From positions 1-60,658 of the forward strand of contig CAZPIN010000144.1 in the NCBI GenBank assembly GCA_964586735.1: 60,658 nucleotides of DNA, written 5' to 3'. The notes beneath the pieces were generated by a model. It saw only the letters and a list, made by a program, of their open reading frames with translations, was not told the DNA's origin and did no database searches. Origin of the DNA: an uncultured Rhodobacterales bacterium (GTDB taxonomy: Bacteria; Pseudomonadota; Alphaproteobacteria; Rhodobacterales; CAZPXZ01). A program made the translations under genes and the position numbers. Each line of letters opens with the position of its first letter. The stretch's first letter is position 1. Below are positions 47,758-56,675 of this stretch, one piece after another.

Positions 47758-47831
47758 GGCGGTCGCCTCCTTGTGGTCGTGGCGGGTACGTCCCGGCAAT
47801 GGTATCGACTTGCCGGGACGGGAGAACGGGA

Positions 47832-49169
47832 ATGGCCAGACGCGCAGGCGAACGACCGGAAACCATTTTCGCCCGGGCGTCGGGCCAGGGCAAATCGGGC
47901 GTCGCGGTTTACCGCGTGTCGGGCCCCGACGCGCTGGAGGGACTGCGCCTGCTGACGGCGTCGGACCTGCCTCCGCCGCGGCGCATCGCCCGCCGCGACC
48001 TGAAGGACCCCGCCAGCGGAGACATCATCGACCAGGCGATGGTGGCGGTGTTTCCGGCGCCGAACAGTTTCACGGGCGAGGACGTAGTCGAGCTGCACGC
48101 GCACGGAAGCCTCGGCGTCGAGCGGCGCCTTGTCACGACTCTGTCGAGCCTGCCCGGCCACCGCCTTGCCGAAGCCGGAGAATTCACCCGCCGGGCGTTT
48201 GAGAAGGGCCGCCTTGACCTCAACCAGGTGGAGGGGCTGGCGGACCTGATCGACGCCGAATCCGACGCCCAGCGCCGCCTGGCCCTGCGCAGCCTCGCCG
48301 GCGAGGCGACCGACGCCGCCGTCGCCTGGCGCGAGGAGATGCTGACCGCCCTTGCCCTGGTGGAGGCGGCGGTGGATTTTGCCGACGAAGGCGAGGACAC
48401 GGCAGGCTACAGGGCAGGGACCGTTGGACCGCTGGGCGGCGTGGCGGAGGCAATTCGGCGTGAAATCGCCGGCAGCGGCGCAACCGAACGGCTGCGCGGC
48501 GGTCTCGAGGTGGCCGTAGTCGGCCCGACAAACTCCGGCAAGTCACTGCTGGTCAACCAGCTGGCCGGACGGGACATGGCCCTGTCCACTCCGGTGCCAG
48601 GCACGACTCGCGACATCATCGAAGCCCACCTCGAAATTGGCGGACTCCCCGTCACCGTGCTGGACACCGCCGGCCTGCGCGACACCAACGACCCGGTGGA
48701 GAAGGCCGGTCTGGAGAAGGCGCACTGGCGGGCGCGGCATGCCGACCTCCGGGTGCACGTGACCGCGCCCGACGTCGAGACTGGCGACGCCATGCCATGG
48801 AGCGAAGGCGACATCGCCGTACACAACAAGAGCGACCTTGGCAGCTACCGCCCAAAGGATGGAGCCATCGCGGTATCGGCGAAAACCGGCGACGGACTGG
48901 ACGCGCTGGTGGCCGCCATCGGCGAGCGTCTGGCCTGGGTGGGCGAAACGGCGTCGCCGATAGTGGCCAGCGAGCGCCGTCGGACCGCACTTGGCGTCTG
49001 CGCCGAAGAGCTGAGCAGCGTCCTTGCCCTCCTGAACGAAGACGGCGCGGCCGAGATTGTCGCCGAGCATCTGCGCCGGGCGCTGCGCGAGCTGGAGCGG
49101 TACGCCGGGCGCGTCGACGCGGAGGATGTGCTGGATGTGATCTTTTCGCGGTTTTGCCTGGGCAAGTAG
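47832..49169 (+). CDS. mnmE: tRNA modification GTPase
   Basis: PNSFTGED, GEFTRRAF, GPTNSGKS, GTTRD, DTAG, FSRFCLGK. Confidence 0.97.
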   Translation: MARRAGERPETIFARASGQGKSGVAVYRVSGPDALEGLRLLTASDLPPPRRIARRDLKDPASGDIIDQAMVAVFPAPNSFTGEDVVELHAHGSLGVERRLVTTLSSLPGHRLAEAGEFTRRAFEKGRLDLNQVEGLADLIDAESDAQRRLALRSLAGEATDAAVAWREEMLTALALVEAAVDFADEGEDTAGYRAGTVGPLGGVAEAIRREIAGSGATERLRGGLEVAVVGPTNSGKSLLVNQLAGRDMALSTPVPGTTRDIIEAHLEIGGLPVTVLDTAGLRDTNDPVEKAGLEKAHWRARHADLRVHVTAPDVETGDAMPWSEGDIAVHNKSDLGSYRPKDGAIAVSAKTGDGLDALVAAIGERLAWVGETASPIVASERRRTALGVCAEELSSVLALLNEDGAAEIVAEHLRRALRELERYAGRVDAEDVLDVIFSRFCLGK

Positions 49170-49288
49170 ATTGGACATTGAGGTCTCCCGCAGCGTGGAC
49201 CGGACGGCGTAGCCCGCAATCCGGTATGGTGCCGCGGCTCGTGCCGGAGATGCTGGCAAGCGTCGCGTCTCGAACGGTGGAGGAAAAA

Positions 49289-50074
49289 GTGATTGATCGG
49301 GCGACCCTTGCACGTGTAGACCGGACCACCACAAGCGGTCGAACCCGGCCTGTAGTGGCTCAGTGCTCTTCGGTAGACGGTGATGTCGAAATCGTCCTGA
49401 AACCCTCGAAGGGCTGCGAACTTGGCGAGGCAAGCCTTGCACGCGAAGCAGTCGCCGCGCTTCTGGCCAGCGACTTGGGACAGCCGGCACCTCAGCCATG
49501 GCTGGTGGATATGCCGGAAGAAGCCATTGCCGCCGTACAGGATCCTCAGATTGCCGATCGACTTCGATGCAGCAGCAAGGTGGCATTTGGCAGCACCTTC
49601 CAAACGGGATTCGGAATCTGGCAACCTGACCAGCAGATCACCGAGTCGATGATGCCGCTGGCCGCCGAAATCCTGCTGTTTGATGCGATCATTCAGAATC
49701 CAGATCGGCGCGTGGGCAACCCAAACTGCTTGCTCATGAACGATGAACTGAGAATTATTGATCACGAGATGGCATTTTCGCACCATCAGGTGATATTATG
49801 GAAGCCCCCATGGATACCAGAAGGACTGAAACACATCGGAAACCCCGGCTTTCACGTCTTTGTTGGCCATCTCAAGGGGGTTCGCATCGACTTCAGCCAA
49901 GCCAAAGACCGATGGGAGAGCTTGACAGACTCCCGCCTTCAGGAGTATAAGGAAGCTGTCCCGGACGAATGGTCGGCGGCTGGCAGCGATGTTGACGCCG
50001 CTGTTGCCTTAATCGCCGAGGCAAGAGACAACATTGACTCCTGTATCGGAGAGCTGCGGGGGATACTGAAATGA
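49289..50074 (+). CDS. HipA-like (PI3/4-kinase fold) kinase
   Basis: SGRTRP, VLK, LAREAVAALLA..LG, FDAIIQNPDRR..NPNCL, IIDHEMAF; GGAGG RBS before the GTG. Confidence 0.85.
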   Translation: MIDRATLARVDRTTTSGRTRPVVAQCSSVDGDVEIVLKPSKGCELGEASLAREAVAALLASDLGQPAPQPWLVDMPEEAIAAVQDPQIADRLRCSSKVAFGSTFQTGFGIWQPDQQITESMMPLAAEILLFDAIIQNPDRRVGNPNCLLMNDELRIIDHEMAFSHHQVILWKPPWIPEGLKHIGNPGFHVFVGHLKGVRIDFSQAKDRWESLTDSRLQEYKEAVPDEWSAAGSDVDAAVALIAEARDNIDSCIGELRGILK

Positions 50075-50901
50075 GCAACCAAGAACCCTACTCCTACGTA
50101 GTGCTTCGCTACGTCCACGATGTTCTGCGGGGGGAGTTCATGAACGCAGGCATCGTCATGTTTGCTCCCGCCAGCAGAAGAGTCCTGGCGAAATTCAACC
50201 CCGTAGCCAAGAGATTCAAGCAGGTATTTCCTGACCTCAAGATTCGCGCTTACACGAGCGCCATTGACAATATGACTCGGGGCATGCAGCGAGTCGCGCA
50301 AGAGATCAGGGAGAACGAAGGAGGCCAAGATTGCAAGACAGCCCTGGATTGCGCAGTACGCGTGCTGCCAATGGATGACAGCGCGCTGCAGTGGTCACAT
50401 GTTGGGTATGGCATTACCCCGAATGTGGAGCAGACCCTCGACCAACTCTACGGCCGTTTTGTCGCCCAGTGCGACAAGCAGGAGAAGAAACGGCAAATCA
50501 GCGACACCAGCGTCTGGCAGGGCGTCGCGGGCGAAATCAGGAAGCAAAAGGTGAAGATTGACCTGAAACCGGTTTGCATTAAGGGACATGCAGACGAAGT
50601 AGAGTTTCGCCGCGCTTGGAAAAATGGCAGCTGGCAGGCGTACGAGCCCCTGTCCTTCGACCTGTCCGCCGATGGCATCAAGGACAAGGCACGGAAGGTG
50701 CTTGGCCAGCTGACGGCCGTAAAGGATGGAGCGAAGGAAGACGTGCACGTGCACTTCATCGTGGGGAAACCTCAGACGAAGTCCTTGATCGGCGTGTACG
50801 AGAATGCCTTGGATATCCTCGATCATGTACCGTTTGAGCACGACATATACGAGGAAAGCCAGTTGGACAAAGTCGTTCAAACCATGAAGGTAGCGGACTG
50901 A
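50071..50901 (+). CDS. DUF3037-type protein, copy 1
   Basis: YSYVVLRYVHDVLRGEFMNAGIV N-terminal signature; ATGA overlap with the kinase. Confidence 0.82.
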   Translation: MSNQEPYSYVVLRYVHDVLRGEFMNAGIVMFAPASRRVLAKFNPVAKRFKQVFPDLKIRAYTSAIDNMTRGMQRVAQEIRENEGGQDCKTALDCAVRVLPMDDSALQWSHVGYGITPNVEQTLDQLYGRFVAQCDKQEKKRQISDTSVWQGVAGEIRKQKVKIDLKPVCIKGHADEVEFRRAWKNGSWQAYEPLSFDLSADGIKDKARKVLGQLTAVKDGAKEDVHVHFIVGKPQTKSLIGVYENALDILDHVPFEHDIYEESQLDKVVQTMKVAD

Positions 50902-50944
50902 CCCCGGCTGCATGCCGGGACAGCTCATCGCTAGAAACTGGTTC

Positions 50945-51211
50945 TAACCCACTTGGAACCAGGGCGGCTGGAGAATCGCAGCGTCTCTGGGAGGCACAGC
51001 AGTGTACTGGGACAGTTTTGGCGTGGATATATGCTTTTCCTGGGACCGGGAGCACTGGCAGCGCTTGACAGGCACCCGCGTACTAGAGTATACGAAGGCA
51101 GTACCGCCTGAATGGGTCGATGCTGGCGGCAGCGTGGATGCGGCAATCAGCATGATTCGCGGGGCCGACCTGGGTCGACACCTGTATCGAGGAGCTGCGG
51201 AGGATACTGAC
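50945..51211 (+). pseudogene. Remnant of a second kinase C-terminus
   Basis: FSWDREHWQRLTGTRVLEYTKAVPPEWVDAGGSVDAAISMI aligns to FSQAKDRWESLTDSRLQEYKEAVPDEWSAAGSDVDAAVALI. Confidence 0.8.
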
Positions 51212-52069
51212 ATGGGCAACCAGGAACAGTACAGCTTTGTGACGCTTCGCTATGTCCACAATATTGTGCTTGAAGAGTTCATGAACGTCGGAGTGGTCAT
51301 GTATGTGCCAGGCACCGGCAGAATGCTTTCGAAGGCCAACCCTGACCCTGAGAGAATCAAAGGAGCGTTTCCTGACCTTAAGGGCAAGTCCTTCAGAAAC
51401 AGGATAACTTCAATCACGCAGGGCATGAAGAGCATCGAGCAGGAAATTAATGCTGTCGGCAAAGGACACGACTGCAATACCGCCCTAGACTGCGCGCAGC
51501 TTGTAATTCCCGCGGATGACAGTGCGCTCCAATGGTCTCATATAGGATATGGCTGGACGCCAAATGTTGACAAAACCTTTGCTTCCATTTACAACCATCT
51601 GGTAACCCGATATGACCGCCTTGGGCAATTCCATATCAGCGACATTGACATCTGGCGGAAGGTCACAAGTGCTATCAAACGGCGCGAAATTAAAGTCAAG
51701 TTCCAGTCGATTCAAATTACCGGGCGAACGGACAAGGTTAAATTTCTCCATGCCCTGAATAGCAACTGCTGGCATATATACGAACCCCTCTCCTTCGACC
51801 TGCCCGCCGAATGTATCAAGGACAAAGCGCGGAGAGTGCTTGGCCAGCTGACGGCCGTAAAGGAAGGAGCAACAGAAGACGTACACGTACATTTCATCGT
51901 GGGACGGCCTCAGAAGAAGTCCTTGATGGGCGTGTACACGGAAGCCTTGAGTATCCTCGACCTTGTGCCGTTCAAACACGACATCTACGAGGATAGCAAC
52001 GCGGACAAAGTCGTTCAGACCATGAAGACTATCGACTGGCTACCGCGGCCGCCGCCCACAGGCGACTGA
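51212..52069 (+). CDS. DUF3037-type protein, copy 2
   Basis: YSFVTLRYVHNIVLEEFMNVGVV; colinear paralog of 50071-50901; GGAGG RBS. Confidence 0.82.
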   Translation: MGNQEQYSFVTLRYVHNIVLEEFMNVGVVMYVPGTGRMLSKANPDPERIKGAFPDLKGKSFRNRITSITQGMKSIEQEINAVGKGHDCNTALDCAQLVIPADDSALQWSHIGYGWTPNVDKTFASIYNHLVTRYDRLGQFHISDIDIWRKVTSAIKRREIKVKFQSIQITGRTDKVKFLHALNSNCWHIYEPLSFDLPAECIKDKARRVLGQLTAVKEGATEDVHVHFIVGRPQKKSLMGVYTEALSILDLVPFKHDIYEDSNADKVVQTMKTIDWLPRPPPTGD

Positions 52070-52083
52070 AACAGCGACTGTTT

Positions 52084-53265
52084 CTATTCCAGCACCCCCG
52101 CCAGCCGATCCCGGCGCGCCCTGACCGCCGCCATCGTCGCTTCTATGGCAGCCATGGCGAACAGCAGCGCCAGCAGCGCCGCCGTACCTATTTCGACGAT
52201 CATCCAGCCAGCGACCAGGGGAAACCCGAAGATTCCAATGAAGTACGTGAGGGCGAACAGCTGCAGGGTCTGCGGCACCAGGGATGTATCCGCGTCACGG
52301 GCCGCCATGGCCGCCAGAATCGGATAGGACGCTCCATAGCCGATGCCAAAGCCAACCGCGACGATCCAGTAGAGCGGAACGCTGCTGCCGGAGTAGACGA
52401 ATAGCAGAATGCCGCCCGCCATGAGGTACTGAAGCACCGCAATCGTCAGGTAGGGATTCTTGCCTCCCTTGAACTTGGCTAGCAGCACGCGGAAGATCAC
52501 CACGGTTACCGTGTAGATGAGGAAATACTCAGCGTAGGCCAGGCCGCGCTCGTCGGCGAACACCGTCTGGAAGCTGTTCATGCTGGCGAAAATGCTCGCT
52601 CCGATGCAGACCATGATGACGGACAGCAGGGCCCGCGAGCGAAGCACTTCGCCGATATTGGCCAGCGTGAGCCGGGATTTTGCTTCGGGACCCGGGTTCA
52701 GGGCGTGCTCTCGCACCGGACGAATAAGCGAGAAGAAGATCAGGGCGGCGGCCACGCAGATCACGGCCATCACGAAAAACGACTGGGCCACCGTGCCGCC
52801 GGCGTCCTCGATCATCGACGCCATCACCGGCGACAGGCCGAAGCCGGCCATAAGAAACACCGAGTTGAGGGCGAAGTAGCGTACCGTCTCGTCGGGCTTG
52901 ACCAGCCTGGTAAGCACGACCGGGGCAAGCGCGTAGGTGAGTCCCCATCCGCCTCCGATCAGAATGCTGGCGGCCACCAGCAGGGTGCCCACGGACGTCG
53001 ACAGGCCGTAGAGCACCATAGCCGCGGCGATCGACAGGCAGGCAAGGCCAAGTGTCGCCACACGTCCGAACCTGTCGGTCAGATGCCCCGAATAGTACAC
53101 CGTAATCAGTGTAGATATGGCCGTGATCAGCAGCATGGCGCCAACGACCTTCTCGTTGGCGCCGAAGGTGTCGAACAGGCGGGGCAGCAGGAATGTCAGT
53201 CCGTACGCGCCTCCCTGCAGGAAAACCGCTATCAGAAACAGGGCAAAGGTTGCTGGCCGCGACAC
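52084..53265 (-). CDS. MFS transporter
   Basis: About 12 TM segments, SGHLTDRFGR motif A. Confidence 0.9.
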   Translation of the reverse strand: MSRPATFALFLIAVFLQGGAYGLTFLLPRLFDTFGANEKVVGAMLLITAISTLITVYYSGHLTDRFGRVATLGLACLSIAAAMVLYGLSTSVGTLLVAASILIGGGWGLTYALAPVVLTRLVKPDETVRYFALNSVFLMAGFGLSPVMASMIEDAGGTVAQSFFVMAVICVAAALIFFSLIRPVREHALNPGPEAKSRLTLANIGEVLRSRALLSVIMVCIGASIFASMNSFQTVFADERGLAYAEYFLIYTVTVVIFRVLLAKFKGGKNPYLTIAVLQYLMAGGILLFVYSGSSVPLYWIVAVGFGIGYGASYPILAAMAARDADTSLVPQTLQLFALTYFIGIFGFPLVAGWMIVEIGTAALLALLFAMAAIEATMAAVRARRDRLAGVLE

Positions 53266-53945
53266 TATTTGCCCTCCTCGTCCAGACGGAAGTCGCGCAC
53301 GTGCTTGGGCACAGGGACTCCTTCGAAGTTGCGCGGGTCCGCGACAGGCTTGCCAACCGTCATGCGCACGGGAATGACTCCCGCCCAGATCGGCAGCTGG
53401 TAGTCCTCCTCGTCGTCCACGGGCGGACCGGTGCGAATTTTTGCCGAGGCTTCGTCAATCGACATTCCCATGACCGTCGTGGCCTTGAGCTCCTTCTTGG
53501 TAACGGCCCGCAGAACGTCCCACCGGCCTGGAAACAGCCCCTCGACCATCTCCCGCATGCGGGCCTCCCTGTCCTCCAGGTCCTCGACCTTGTGCGCCGT
53601 GCCCAGCAGCATCGCCGAGCGGTAATTGGTCGAGTGGTGGAATCCTGACCGCGCCATGACGAACCCGTCCAGGGCATAAACCGTCAGGCACACCTTGGCC
53701 GAGTCGACAGTGCGCAGCATTCTGCTTGCCGACGACCCATGCCAGTAGACGTGGTCTCCCTCGCGCCACTGCAGGGTGGGCGTCACGTACGGCTGGCCGT
53801 CGAAGACGTAGCCTACGCTGCACACTGGCATTGCGTCGAGGATGCGATCAAGGCTTTCGCGGTCATACTTGCCGCGTTTGTGAAGCCGCCTCAGGCGGAC
53901 CCGGTCCGACCGCGGCTTCGGAGCGCCTGTGGAAGCGCGCGCCAT
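53265..53945 (-). CDS. Pyridoxamine 5'-phosphate oxidase-like flavin-binding protein (start uncertain)
   Basis: RGKYDR, YWHGSSASRML, DGFVMARSGFHHSTNYRS, SAKIRTGPP, WAGVIP. Confidence 0.88.
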   Translation of the reverse strand: MARASTGAPKPRSDRVRLRRLHKRGKYDRESLDRILDAMPVCSVGYVFDGQPYVTPTLQWREGDHVYWHGSSASRMLRTVDSAKVCLTVYALDGFVMARSGFHHSTNYRSAMLLGTAHKVEDLEDREARMREMVEGLFPGRWDVLRAVTKKELKATTVMGMSIDEASAKIRTGPPVDDEEDYQLPIWAGVIPVRMTVGKPVADPRNFEGVPVPKHVRDFRLDEEGK

Positions 53946-54317
53946 TGCCGTAACTCCATAGTTCGCGGACACTCTGCTCCGCATAGAGGCACCGACGTCG
54001 TTGAGCGTCTGCGCCGACGGCATCATAGCAAAATTCCTCCGTCGTTTGAACCTCCTGTCAAGTGCCACGTCTGTCGTCCGAGCAGGTCGCCGTGGCAACT
54101 GTCCATCTTGGCGAATCGCCCCAACAGAACGTGCACCATCCGGTCGCCCAGCGCCCTTTGCGAGCCGCGAATTGCCCGGTTCGCCGCGCCCCGCGCGCAG
54201 CAAAGCCGCCTTGACGGACGGTCCTCGATTCCTCGTGGCAGAGTGTCCGCCGCCGCCTGTCGCCATGAGCCAGTACAAGACCCGCGCGGCGGGCTTGTCC
54301 CAGCGTCACCCCGCAAT

Positions 54318-54636
54318 TGTTTCATATGAAACATTCGCCCATGACCGGCCTTCCGGCGGATGCTTCCGGCAATGTTTCATATGAAACAATTGCGACACGC
54401 CAGCGGCGGCAAAGCTGGACTGCGGATTGCAATGTTTCATATGAAACATCTTTTTCGCCTGGGCGACGCGGCCCCCTCTCCGCTTCATGCCGGCCGCCGA
54501 GCCTGGCAGCGGCCGGGCATGGCGGAATCAGCGCGGGCACCTGCATGCTCCCTCCGTCAATGTTTCATATGAAACAATTGCGGCACGCCAGCAGCGCCAA
54601 TGCGGGATTGCGGATGGCGATGTTTCATATGAAACA
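54318..54636. promoter_or_regulatory. Cluster of five parS centromere sites (TGTTTCATATGAAACA)
   Basis: Identical 16-bp palindromes at 54318, 54373, 54433, 54561 and 54621, upstream of mnmG-parA-parB; 14/16 match to TGTTTCACGTGAAACA. Confidence 0.92.
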
Positions 54637-54725: not shown

Positions 54726-56675
54726 ATGGCCCGCAGAAACCGCCAAATCGCTGATTTCGACGTACTCGTAGTGGGCGGCGGCCACGCGGGATGCGAGGCG
54801 GCGCTCGCCGCGGCGAGAGCTGGCGCCAGCACGGTTCTAGCTACGCACCGTCGCGACCGGATCGGCGAAATGTCCTGCAATCCCGCCATGGGCGGCGTTG
54901 GCAAGGGCAACCTGATTCGCGAAATCGACGCTCTCGACGGCGCCATGGGACGCGTCGCGGACCGGGCTGGCATCCAGTTCCGCCTGCTCAACCGCACCCG
55001 CGGGCCAGCGGTTCAGGGACCGCGGGCGCAGTGCGACCGTGCCCTTTACCGCCTGCGTATGCAAAGAACCGTAGCTGCTCAGGCAAACCTCGACGTCGTC
55101 GAAGGAGAAGTCGCCGACTTCCTGATCGAAAGCGGCCGCGCCGCCGGAGTCGCGCTGGCCGACGGCAGCTGCATCCGCGCCCGCGCGGTCATTCTGACCA
55201 CCGGCACCTTTCTGCGTGGCCAAATCCACATTGGCCGTAAGGTTTCCGAGGGAGGGCGCATTGGCGACCCCGCCGCGCGCCGCCTTGCCGAGCGCATGGA
55301 ATCGCTTGGATTCGCCTTTGGCCGCCTCAAGACCGGCACTCCGCCGCGCCTCGACGGCAACACCATCGACTGGGACGCGCTGCAGCCCCAGCCAGGCGAC
55401 GACGTCCCCGAAATGCTGTCGTTCCTCTCCACCGGCCCAGAAGCTAGGCAGGTTTGCTGCGCCATTACGCAGACCGACTCCGCCACCCACGAAATCGTCC
55501 GCCGACATCTGCCCGAGTCCGCCATGTACGGCGGAAGAATCCACGGTCCTGGCCCCAGATACTGTCCTTCTATCGAGGACAAGATCGTACGCTTTCCCGA
55601 CCGCGACACCCACCAGATCTTTCTCGAGCCCGAAGGGCTGGACGATTCGACTGTGTACCCCAATGGAATCTCAACGTCTTTGGGTGAAGAGGCCCAGCGC
55701 GACATGGTGCGGTCCATCCGCGGCCTGGAGCGCGCCACGATTTTCCGTCCTGGTTACGCCATCGAGTACGACTTCGTCGACCCCCGCAGCCTTGACGCGA
55801 CTCTTGCCTGCCAGGCAGTTCCCGGCCTGTATCTCGCAGGCCAGATCAACGGCACGACGGGCTACGAGGAAGCTGCAGCCCAGGGCCTAGTCGCGGGACT
55901 CAACGCCGCCCTGCAATGCCGCGGCGACGCTCCCTTTACCGTGGACCGCGCCACTGGCTATATCGGCGTCCTTGTGGACGATCTGATCACCAAGGGCGTC
56001 AGCGAGCCGTACCGGATGTTCACCTCGCGGGCGGAGTACCGCCTCTCGCTGCGAGCCGACAACGCCGACCTGCGCCTTACCGAGCGCGGCCTGGCCATCG
56101 GCTGCGTTGGAGAAACGCGCCGCAGGATGTTCGAAGAAAAGATGGAAGCGCTGGCCCGGGCCCGCGACCTCACCTCCGGCCTCTGCCTGCCCGGCGGCAG
56201 CGCGGCCCGTCTTGGACTCTCTCCAAGACGCGATGGCCAACCGAGGACTTTTAGCGAACTCCTCGGCATGCCGGGCGTTGCGCGCCGCGATCTTGAGGTG
56301 CTCTGGCCCGATCTTGCCTCCATACCCGGCCCGATCTGGTCCATCGTCAAGAACGACTGCCTGTACGCCGGCGTCATGCCGCGCCAGCAGGCGGACATCG
56401 AGGCGTACCGCCGCCAGAGGAGCACGCCAATTCACGAAAGCATCCGCTACGAGGGACTGTCCGGCCTGTCCTCGGAGCTGCGCGAAAAGCTTGATAGAGC
56501 GCGCCCCGCAAACATAGCCCAAGCCGAGCGCATCGAGGGCATGACGCCATCGGCGCTGCTGCGCGTACTGGTGGAATGCCGTCGACTCGATGCGGCCGGC
56601 TCCAGCCTTTCGACGCCGGTAGCGCCGGAGAGCCGTCGGGCAGCGGCACCGGTTTCGGAGCGTCGGGCACCGTGA
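54726..56675 (+). CDS. mnmG: tRNA uridine-5-carboxymethylaminomethyl synthesis enzyme MnmG (GidA)
   Basis: [67 protein letters not shown]. Confidence 0.98.

Follow-up and report, generated by a model that had tools for sequence, protein, structure and literature searches.

Between mnmE and mnmG lies a low-GC insert that carries a kinase gene (A1), a DUF3037 gene (B1), the remnant of a second kinase gene (A2) and a second DUF3037 gene (B2) (Table 1). GC content is 0.49–0.57 across 49400–52000 against 0.70 in mnmE, and the insertion site, a variable one, lies close to the parS cluster in the window, the whole 60,658-nt contig of an uncultured Rhodobacterales bacterium that was analysed. An earlier note on this DNA had described a lower-GC cassette with an intact kinase, a first DUF3037 copy coupled to it through an ATGA, a decayed kinase C-terminus, an intact second copy and no HipB-like HTH gene; each of these items, their order and the coupling is present in the sequence. 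PDC-M66B, the PADLOC profile matched by both DUF3037 proteins, is carried by none of five genomes of the same genus, and in four of these five the mnmE-mnmG gap measures 0.2–6.8 kb and holds unrelated cargo. The cassette is therefore a foreign insert at a variable spot.

Table 1. Features of the mnmE-mnmG insert (positions in the window)
Feature	Coordinates	Strand	Evidence
A1, intact HipA_2-type kinase, 261 aa, presumed toxin/effector	49289..50074	+	Pfam, PADLOC, alignment, fold
B1, DUF3037 partner, 276 aa, presumed neutraliser	50071..50901	+	PF11236, PDC-M66B, AF2
Strain-variable segment: end of B1, spacer, remnant, nearly all of B2	50889..52044	+	X4 and X5 contigs
Spacer, 49 nt, B1 to kinase remnant; holds the deletion junction	50902..50950	+	Kinase profile, sequence
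A2 remnant, roughly the C-terminal third of a second kinase, frameshifted, stop lost	50951..51211	+	Kinase profile
Longest ORF, 355 aa (gene-caller P0003), remnant read into B2	51002..52069	+	ORF list
B2, intact second DUF3037 gene, 285 aa, orphaned	51212..52069	+	PDC-M66B, alignment, tree

No tRNA gene occurs in 40000–60658, and within the window no further defence or mobile-element gene adjoins the insert. No ORF lies in the 119-nt gap that separates mnmE from the kinase gene (49170–49288), and no product has a Pfam HTH match. Scanning 48900–52400 for promoter-like sites on the + strand and for terminator-like sites returned neither, fewer than in shuffled sequence, a result that says nothing about a host with a promoter repertoire unlike that of E. 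coli. A search of NCBIfam with the three proteins gave no family at E ≤ 0.1. Across the host genome (247 contigs) there is a single kinase match and two B matches.

A1 is predicted to be a competent kinase. Its frame runs from GTG 49289 to TGA 50074 behind a GGAGG at 49279–49283, and its product matches both Pfam HipA_2 (PF20613, E 1.5e-20) and PADLOC PDC-M66A (E 4e-67, 224 bits, profile positions 17–269 of 270). In a 49-sequence alignment all 41 invariant columns are retained, including those of K38, D139, N146 and D158; the kept residues comprise K38, the QNPDRR..NPN loop (136–146) and D158-H159-E160. The AF2 model (pLDDT 92.4, pTM 0.90) matches PI4KIIalpha (Z 14.9), CtkA (Z 12.8), HipA 5k98 (Z 12.5, rmsd 3.8, 202 residues aligned), S. 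oneidensis HipA (Z 12.4) and HipT (Z 10.6), so that the modelled fold is HipA/CtkA/PI4K-like. Our prediction of kinase competence follows from this fold together with the complete set of invariant columns.

B1 is joined to the kinase through a 4-nt overlap of stop and start on the same strand (ATGA, 50071–50074). Its residues 9–131 match DUF3037 (PF11236, E 1.6e-16), and PDC-M66B covers nearly the whole protein (E 3.3e-72, profile positions 3–272 of 281). The AF2 model (pLDDT 91.2) has two domains. The C-terminal one (142–276) bears only moderate likeness to restriction-endonuclease-like folds (BstEII, Z 8.1 with 128 residues aligned; BsoBI, Z 7.5; Bax1, Z 7.4; Cdn1, Z 7.2–7.6), and the same lists contain GTPases and flavodoxin-like folds at Z 6–7. 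Foldseek returned no PDB entry for B1 at E 0.001 or better, the best being Can2 (E 2.5e-3), and neither this half nor the matching part of B2 matches anything in Pfam, even with E values as high as 10 allowed. Predicting an A1 + B1 complex from alignment inputs, without controls, gave ipSAE 0.00 in two runs, which is evidence neither way.

Downstream of B1, the second kinase survives only as a fragment. The stretch 50951–51166 corresponds to positions 176–247 of the 263 in our own kinase profile (E 5e-8), the profile finds nothing 5' of 50951 in the spacer, and, relative to A1, the reading frame changes at a 2-nt gap near 51166. Profile positions 1–175, about the first 170 residues, are gone, and with them the ATP-binding lysine, the catalytic loop and the Mg-binding aspartate, leaving a remnant devoid of catalytic residues. 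Because its in-frame part still shows omega 0.26 against A1, most of the divergence between the two kinases predates the truncation.

B2, by comparison with B1, is whole yet shows signs of relaxed constraint at the sequence level. It has its own ATG (51212) and a GGAGG at 51199–51203, gains 10 residues through a TGA-to-TGG change at the B1 stop position, matches PDC-M66B (E 1.7e-61) and retains all 26 invariant columns of the family; omega against B1 is 0.28. Amino acid identity is 55% to B1 and 67% to the homologue P0002. At the AWKNG motif, found in 108 of the 120 listed homologues, B2 reads ALNSN and is the sole listed homologue with more than one change. Its tip branch, at 0.47 versus 0.14, is roughly threefold the length of that of its sister P0002 in a quick tree whose B2+P0002 pairing has an SH-aLRT of 93, under the tool's 95 mark. 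B2 is dispensable in related strains and probably drifting.

The longest open frame through this region reads the remnant into B2, and its 355-aa product is, judging from homologues, probably not the real protein. It adds 70 N-terminal residues in frame with B2, 15 of them read outside the kinase frame. A GGAGG at 50990–50994 lies 7 nt 5' of its GTG at 51002. No fused kinase-DUF3037 protein of at least 484 aa occurs among 1243 candidate B1 relatives, although this counts as weak evidence; the 120 homologues listed all measure 275–295 aa. The fusion form entertained in the earlier note thus keeps its open frame and ribosome-binding motif and lacks a counterpart among these relatives.

Most related loci are built around an intact kinase-partner pair. 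We compared 80 loci picked by similarity to B, a choice under which cases of an intact kinase with a broken B could not appear: 67 have an intact kinase directly upstream of a DUF3037 gene, and all 67 carry the ATGA at the junction. Elsewhere IS elements break up the kinase beside an intact B (L024, L077), or the kinase is fragmented (L029) or absent within 4 kb upstream (L063); several of the split kinases come from MAGs, in which sequencing errors are possible. One locus, L091, follows its kinase-B pair with a second DUF3037 gene that is itself split into two frames. The A-B-remnant-B arrangement recurs in none of the 80 other loci. Named homologues are mostly Alphaproteobacteria.

Comparison between strains reveals that the downstream half of the cassette comes and goes. 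Of five sequencing runs found for the locus, none was listed as RNA. In runs X4 and X5, from two other sponge-metagenome studies, one 653-nt contig each (depth 100–128) joins 50888 to 52045, skipping 1156 nt and carrying 12 other letters between. X4 also has a contig of A2/B2 type that is roughly 85% alike. These strains keep A1-B1, over which the listed contig pieces are about 87–96% identical. The segment holding the remnant and B2 is therefore dispensable in these strains. B1 and B2 share a 3' repeat of 300 nt (77% identity, spacing 1138), their dS falls to about 0.5 over the last 90 codons and is saturated mid-gene, and in the single form a B1-type body leads into the flanking sequence found downstream of B2. 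The tandem thus appears to have collapsed to a single module in related strains by recombination between the B1 and B2 3' ends, a direction (collapse instead of gain) argued from parsimony alone.

We consider it extremely unlikely that the tandem is a MAG assembly artefact in which two strain variants were stitched together. Such an error might be expected of a genome in 247 contigs with a single-module variant present in other samples. Against it, a 1547-nt contig from X2 covers 49696–51242, and with it the end of B1, the remnant and the start of B2, with 0 differences, and X3 contigs covering 50647–51023 and 51032–52152 agree; X2 and X3 share a study with the likely source sample, making their independence partial. 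The copies are, moreover, just 72–77% identical in DNA, which makes a mis-join unlikely.

A1-B1 belongs to a family that has already been described. By its profile matches the pair is a member of the two-gene HipA-like kinase / DUF3037 family called PDC-M66 by PADLOC; the HMM and PADLOC searches that the earlier note had asked for matched PDC-M66A and PDC-M66B near full length. That note had also named a match to an already characterised system as grounds against its proposal of an anti-phage or toxin-antitoxin module, and PDC-M66, with its published tested relatives, is such a match: the kind of module is supported, its novelty is not. The relatives that have been tested come from distant hosts, Sphingobacterium and E. 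coli.

Two published systems frame what such a pair may do. At the Retron-Sda1 locus of Sphingobacterium daejeonense, as reported there, a HipA-like/DUF3037 pair is called PDC-M66 by PADLOC, defence against phage Bas51 was lost when the kinase was deleted, and deletion of the DUF3037 gene was toxic (PMC12548924). Order, strand and coupling in that pair are the same as in A1-B1. Unlike the Sda1 pair, A1-B1 has no retron beside it and is instead followed by a truncated second module; the host phylum differs, and the likeness is drawn through PADLOC profiles and architecture, not direct sequence alignment. DS-6, or HipAD, is an E. coli prophage system from the DefensePredictor work, whose authors hypothesise a toxin-antitoxin-like system; its DS-6A catalytic mutant lost defence, and DS-6B is described as DUF3037 + DUF1829 (PMC13092281, which cites Brenes & Laub 2025 for HipAD). 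It resembles A1-B1 in pairing a HipA-family kinase with a DUF3037-bearing partner in the absence of HipB, and where its defence needs the kinase catalytic residue, A1 has the catalytic residues by sequence. The C-terminal halves of B1 and B2, however, give no Pfam match to DUF1829, and tblastn with B1 against 50,697 phage records found no match. On these grounds A1-B1 is, by sequence, a different and distant subfamily, and the C-terminal half of B may work differently from that of DS-6B.

The classical HipBA and HipBST modules are more remote. They share with A1-B1 the kinase fold and, as predicted here, a scheme in which a partner encoded alongside keeps a toxic kinase in check. HipBA has an upstream HipB HTH antitoxin that the A1 locus lacks, and HipA combines N-terminal domains (Couple_hipA / HipA_N) with HipA_C, whereas the 261-aa A1 shows HipA_2 only. 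The partner lies upstream in HipBA and HipBST; A1's is encoded downstream and is unrelated to HipB or HipS.

The reading that we consider likely, from sequence and from analogy with the tested relatives, is that A1-B1 is a working HipA_2/DUF3037 anti-phage module followed by the wreck of a long-diverged A2-B2 module, with B2 left as an orphan. A1 would be a growth-arresting toxin whose activity gives defence, as in those relatives, and B1, made by coupled translation, would restrain it until infection frees the kinase. Phosphorylation of an essential target would then presumably lead to abortive infection or a halt in growth. A deletion would have cut A2 down to its last third and spared its partner, after which the tandem would have resolved to a single module in related strains through the similar 3' ends. 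Toxin-antitoxin pairs usually decay in this manner: the toxin can be lost safely, and the antidote cannot go first.

Other readings give B2 a job. It might work as a second antidote to A1, or modulate it, in a one-kinase, two-partner system, where it would cross-neutralise A1, raise the firing threshold or act as an anti-addiction factor against incoming A2-type modules. We think this unlikely, although B2 is unbroken, starts from an ATG preceded by a GGAGG, keeps every invariant column and has an omega of 0.28 against B1, and the absence of any terminator-like site between B1 and B2 makes co-transcription possible. The last 90 codons of the two genes are also far more alike than the rest, as if kept compatible (dS about 0.5, and 73–83% amino acid identity in three of the final four 30-residue windows), and L091 offers a second DUF3037 gene behind a kinase-B pair. 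Yet B2 alone has lost AWKNG and sits on a long branch, relatives that keep A1-B1 lack the segment, the extra gene of L091 is split, the arrangement is missing from the 80 other loci, and the omega mostly reflects divergence older than the truncation. Less probable again is a role for B as an enzyme or DNA sensor alongside the kinase, with the retained B2 or the 355-aa form as a second, differently triggered sensor feeding the single kinase. That role is suggested by the many invariant polar residues of the N-terminal domain (R13, Y14, H16, E22, N25, R48, D102) together with the restriction-endonuclease-like C-terminal domain and its invariant D175, D197 and K206; E192 there is near-invariant, and these residues are candidates for the D...(D/E)xK catalytic set of the PD-(D/E)xK nuclease superfamily.

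The expansion to two specificities put forward in the earlier note, possibly with the remnant-B2 fusion as a new functional form, we regard as very improbable. Two partners diverged to 55% identity do stand behind one kinase, and the fused frame is open and preceded by a GGAGG. But the remnant has no catalytic residues, 15 of the 70 added residues leave the kinase frame, the listed homologues show no fused length (the search for longer fusions weighing little), and related strains dispense with the segment. Two specificities are unsupported because only one kinase can be active: the second lacks its first 170 or so residues, its partner shows signs of relaxed constraint, and relatives do without both.

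Beyond annotation the locus offers little; it is tidy but ordinary. With it, a PDC-M66/HipAD-type kinase defence module is recorded from a sponge-associated alphaproteobacterium, in the variable stretch between mnmE and mnmG close to the parS cluster. A2-B2 is a clear natural example of module decay in which the kinase is lost and the partner kept, and the strain comparison provides an example of tandem copies collapsing between strains. Published work casts the kinase as the harmful member of the pair and the DUF3037 protein as its protective counterpart, and the decay pattern supports that view independently of the experiments. As an orphan, B2 is a ready-made test case for partner specificity in the PDC-M66/HipAD-type family.

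The gap between mnmE and mnmG probably houses one working PDC-M66/HipAD-type module, the kinase A1 with its DUF3037 partner B1, followed by a decaying orphan partner, B2. The GC profile reads 0.49–0.57 in this stretch against 0.70 in mnmE. The cassette is as the earlier note described it in every detail: low GC, a kinase coupled through ATGA to the first DUF3037 copy, a kinase remnant (A2) and an intact second copy. The claimed lack of a HipB-like gene is also upheld, as ORF and Pfam searches found no HTH gene among the cassette products and ORFs. In a DNA alignment with the intact kinase, the A2 remnant has a 2-nt gap near 51166 that shifts its frame, and its old overlapping stop has been lost. 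Because of this shift, an ORF from GTG 51002 continues into B2, the in-frame run that the note ascribed to a small indel; the gene caller's version (P0003) is this 355-aa reading. For the kinase, the gene caller chose a start 21 codons before GTG 49289 (49226–49288), which gives 282 aa (P0121). To judge from sequence, the product is more likely the shorter form, since homologues measure 262–263 aa and a GGAGG precedes the GTG.

Features of the cassette and its flanks in the window
Feature	Coordinates	Strand	Remarks
mnmE	47799-49169		MnmE domains found
A1 kinase, 261 aa	GTG 49289 to TGA 50074	+	GGAGG at 49279-49283
B1, DUF3037, 276 aa	ATG 50071 to 50901	+	start overlaps A1 stop as ATGA
Spacer, 49 nt			between B1 and second-kinase piece
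A2, second-kinase remnant	50951-51166	+	matched by kinase profile, positions 176-247 of 263
B2, DUF3037, 285 aa	ATG 51212 to 52069	+	GGAGG at 51199-51203
MFS transporter	52084-53265	-	shares mnmE-mnmG gap
Pyridox_ox_2 protein	53265-54278	-	shares mnmE-mnmG gap
mnmG	54726-56675		

An assembly artefact was considered for the tandem and rejected: a 1547-nt contig of a second sample, drawn from the same study, covers 49696–51242 with no differences. Contigs from a third sample cover 50647–52152.

A1 and B1 belong to families with demonstrated phage defence. A1 matches Pfam HipA_2 (E 1.5e-20) and PADLOC PDC-M66A (E 4e-67, profile positions 17–269 of 270), and B1 and B2 both match Pfam DUF3037 and PADLOC PDC-M66B (E 3.3e-72 and 1.7e-61); NCBIfam held no model for any of the three. 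The pair, which the earlier note put forward as a candidate defence or toxin-antitoxin module, thus matches at family level an already characterised system, by these profiles and by two papers. According to PMC12548924, the HipA-like/DUF3037 pair beside Retron-Sda1 is PDC-M66 in PADLOC and protects E. coli from phage Bas51 without retron parts; removing the kinase ends this protection, and removing the DUF3037 gene is toxic. PMC13092281 describes DS-6, renamed HipAD, a HipA-related kinase with a DUF3037+DUF1829 partner, whose phage protection is lost on change of a catalytic residue. Its authors hypothesise toxin-antitoxin-like action and credit independent discovery to Brenes & Laub 2025.

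A1 has its catalytic residues intact. Of the columns that are invariant across a 49-sequence alignment it keeps all 41, among them K38, the DHE motif and the QNPDRR..NPN loop. Its confident predicted structure (pLDDT 92.4, pTM 0.90) resembles PI4KIIalpha (Z 14.9), actin-fragmin kinase (Z 13.4), CtkA (Z 12.8), HipA (Z 12.5, rmsd 3.8, 202 aligned) and HipT (Z 10.6); as modelled, A1 belongs to the atypical HipA/PI4K-like kinase group. The B1 prediction (pLDDT 91.2) has two confident domains. Unlike the DS-6/HipAD partner with its DUF1829, the C-terminal domain of B1 (142–276) matches no Pfam family at thresholds up to E 10. It moderately resembles restriction-endonuclease-like nuclease domains (BstEII Z 8.1, BsoBI Z 7.5, Bax1 Z 7.4, Cdn1 Z 7.2–7.6), with GTPase/flavodoxin folds scoring nearly as high.

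The coupled pair is the usual form among relatives. A large protein collection holds 129 homologues of B1 and 285 of the kinase; those with names are mostly alphaproteobacterial and labelled "DUF3037 domain-containing protein" and "HipA family kinase". A one-genome-per-species scan yielded 276 relatives of B, and we surveyed the best 80 of these loci. In 67 of the 80 the DUF3037 gene is immediately preceded by an intact kinase, always with an ATGA junction (67/67); none has the kinase-B-remnant-B form. Ten have a partial, split or displaced kinase, in a survey selected by similarity to B where broken-B cases could not appear. IS elements sit inside the kinase of L024 (2788–3510) and L077 (2300–3726) and between kinase and partner in L072 (2325–4001), the DUF3037 gene being whole in each; from their N-terminal sequences we take these elements to be IS3-like, IS256-like and a 409-aa transposase. 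The kinase is in fragments in L029 and frameshifted in L032, L064 and L081, where MAG errors may be responsible. One locus is cut by a contig end, and two (L063, L088) showed no HipA_2-type kinase. L088 (926–4864) shows that a DUF3037 partner need not go with a HipA_2 kinase: behind the gene for a type I R-M specificity subunit come a 299-aa HipA_C-type kinase and a 248-aa Couple_hipA/HIRAN protein, and after these the DUF3037 gene. A Rhodanobacter MAG (L091:2041–5736) carries a kinase-B pair after an HsdS-like gene, with a second, distant DUF3037 gene behind it that is itself split over two frames.

The surrounding gap is a generally variable spot and no defence island. Four genomes of the same genus have mnmE-mnmG gaps of about 0.2, 1.5, 1.9 and 6.8 kb, without homologues of the kinase, B, MFS or Pyridox_ox_2 genes; their cargo comprises a glycosyltransferase, an LPG-synthase-like membrane protein (LPG_synthase_TM), an amine oxidase, Meth_synt_2 and ORFs without a Pfam family. 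PDC-M66B had no match in five other genomes of the genus, one only 67% complete. The genome to which the window belongs (3.4 Mb in 247 contigs) has only two B matches, B1 and B2, and one kinase match. The MFS and Pyridox_ox_2 genes are intermediate in GC (0.60–0.64), the MFS and B2 stops converge 14 nt apart, and no tRNA lies near the cassette. Five copies of a 16-nt palindrome, TGTTTCATATGAAACA, occur at 54318–54636, within the 450 nt upstream of mnmG, including two 84-nt units, 89% alike, with two copies each; we take it to be parS-like, with a centre differing from canonical parS.

The two modules diverged long before A2 decayed. B1 and B2 share 55% protein identity, and a metagenomic protein, P0002, lies closer to B2 (67%) than to B1 (62%). 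The stop of B2 is altered, TGG in place of TGA, so that the protein runs on for 10 residues. The three proteins group together (SH-aLRT 99) when 59 are placed in a quick maximum-likelihood tree, with B2 and P0002 as sisters (SH-aLRT 93; tips 0.47 and 0.14). Given these identities and placements, the sequences mark A1-B1 and A2-B2 as old paralogues or separate acquisitions, not a recent duplication. The in-frame part of A2 agrees: against A1 it gives omega 0.26 and dS 1.8, so most of this divergence built up while A2 was still under selection. Truncation of A2 appears comparatively recent.

Close relatives do without the remnant and most of B2. The stretch occurs in sponge metagenomes, and a run from each of two further studies (X4, X5) has contig pieces over A1-B1 that, as listed, match the window at about 87–96% identity, at depth 100–230. 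One 653-nt contig in each joins 50888 to 52045, skipping 1156 nt with 12 other letters between; in these strains the kinase is followed by a B1-type gene and then directly by the flank that lies behind B2 in the window, and the spacer, remnant and body of B2 are missing. Because the skipped length approximates the spacing (1138–1141) of a direct repeat at the 3' ends of the B genes, and the breakpoints match in position within the near-identical last 22 nt of B1 and B2, the simplest account would be that the B 3' ends recombined and the tandem collapsed; the reverse direction is possible. In both cases, close relatives with A1-B1 can do without the remnant and B2. There is a hint of complete A2/B2-type modules in the X4 community: one contig (depth 73) is about 85% like 51175–51378, around the start of B2, and the part of it that does not align, before 51038, looks like further kinase sequence.

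The main rival holds that B2 still acts as a second antidote, which we consider unlikely. B2 keeps all 26 family-invariant columns and shows omega 0.28 against B1, with dS saturated mid-gene and about 0.5 in the last 90 codons, matching a 300-nt 3' direct repeat of 77% identity shared by both genes. Yet the AWKNG motif, present in 108 of 120 homologues and altered at one position in 11, reads ALNSN in B2 alone, with four of five positions changed. The B2 tip is long, and strains retaining A1-B1 lack the segment.

For the favoured single working module, published relatives suggest how it would operate. A1 would be the toxin, a kinase that confers defence through its activity, and B1, made by coupled translation, would restrain it until infection. 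This kind of module is already known from those relatives; A2 decay and the apparent tandem collapse are a neat illustration rather than a discovery.
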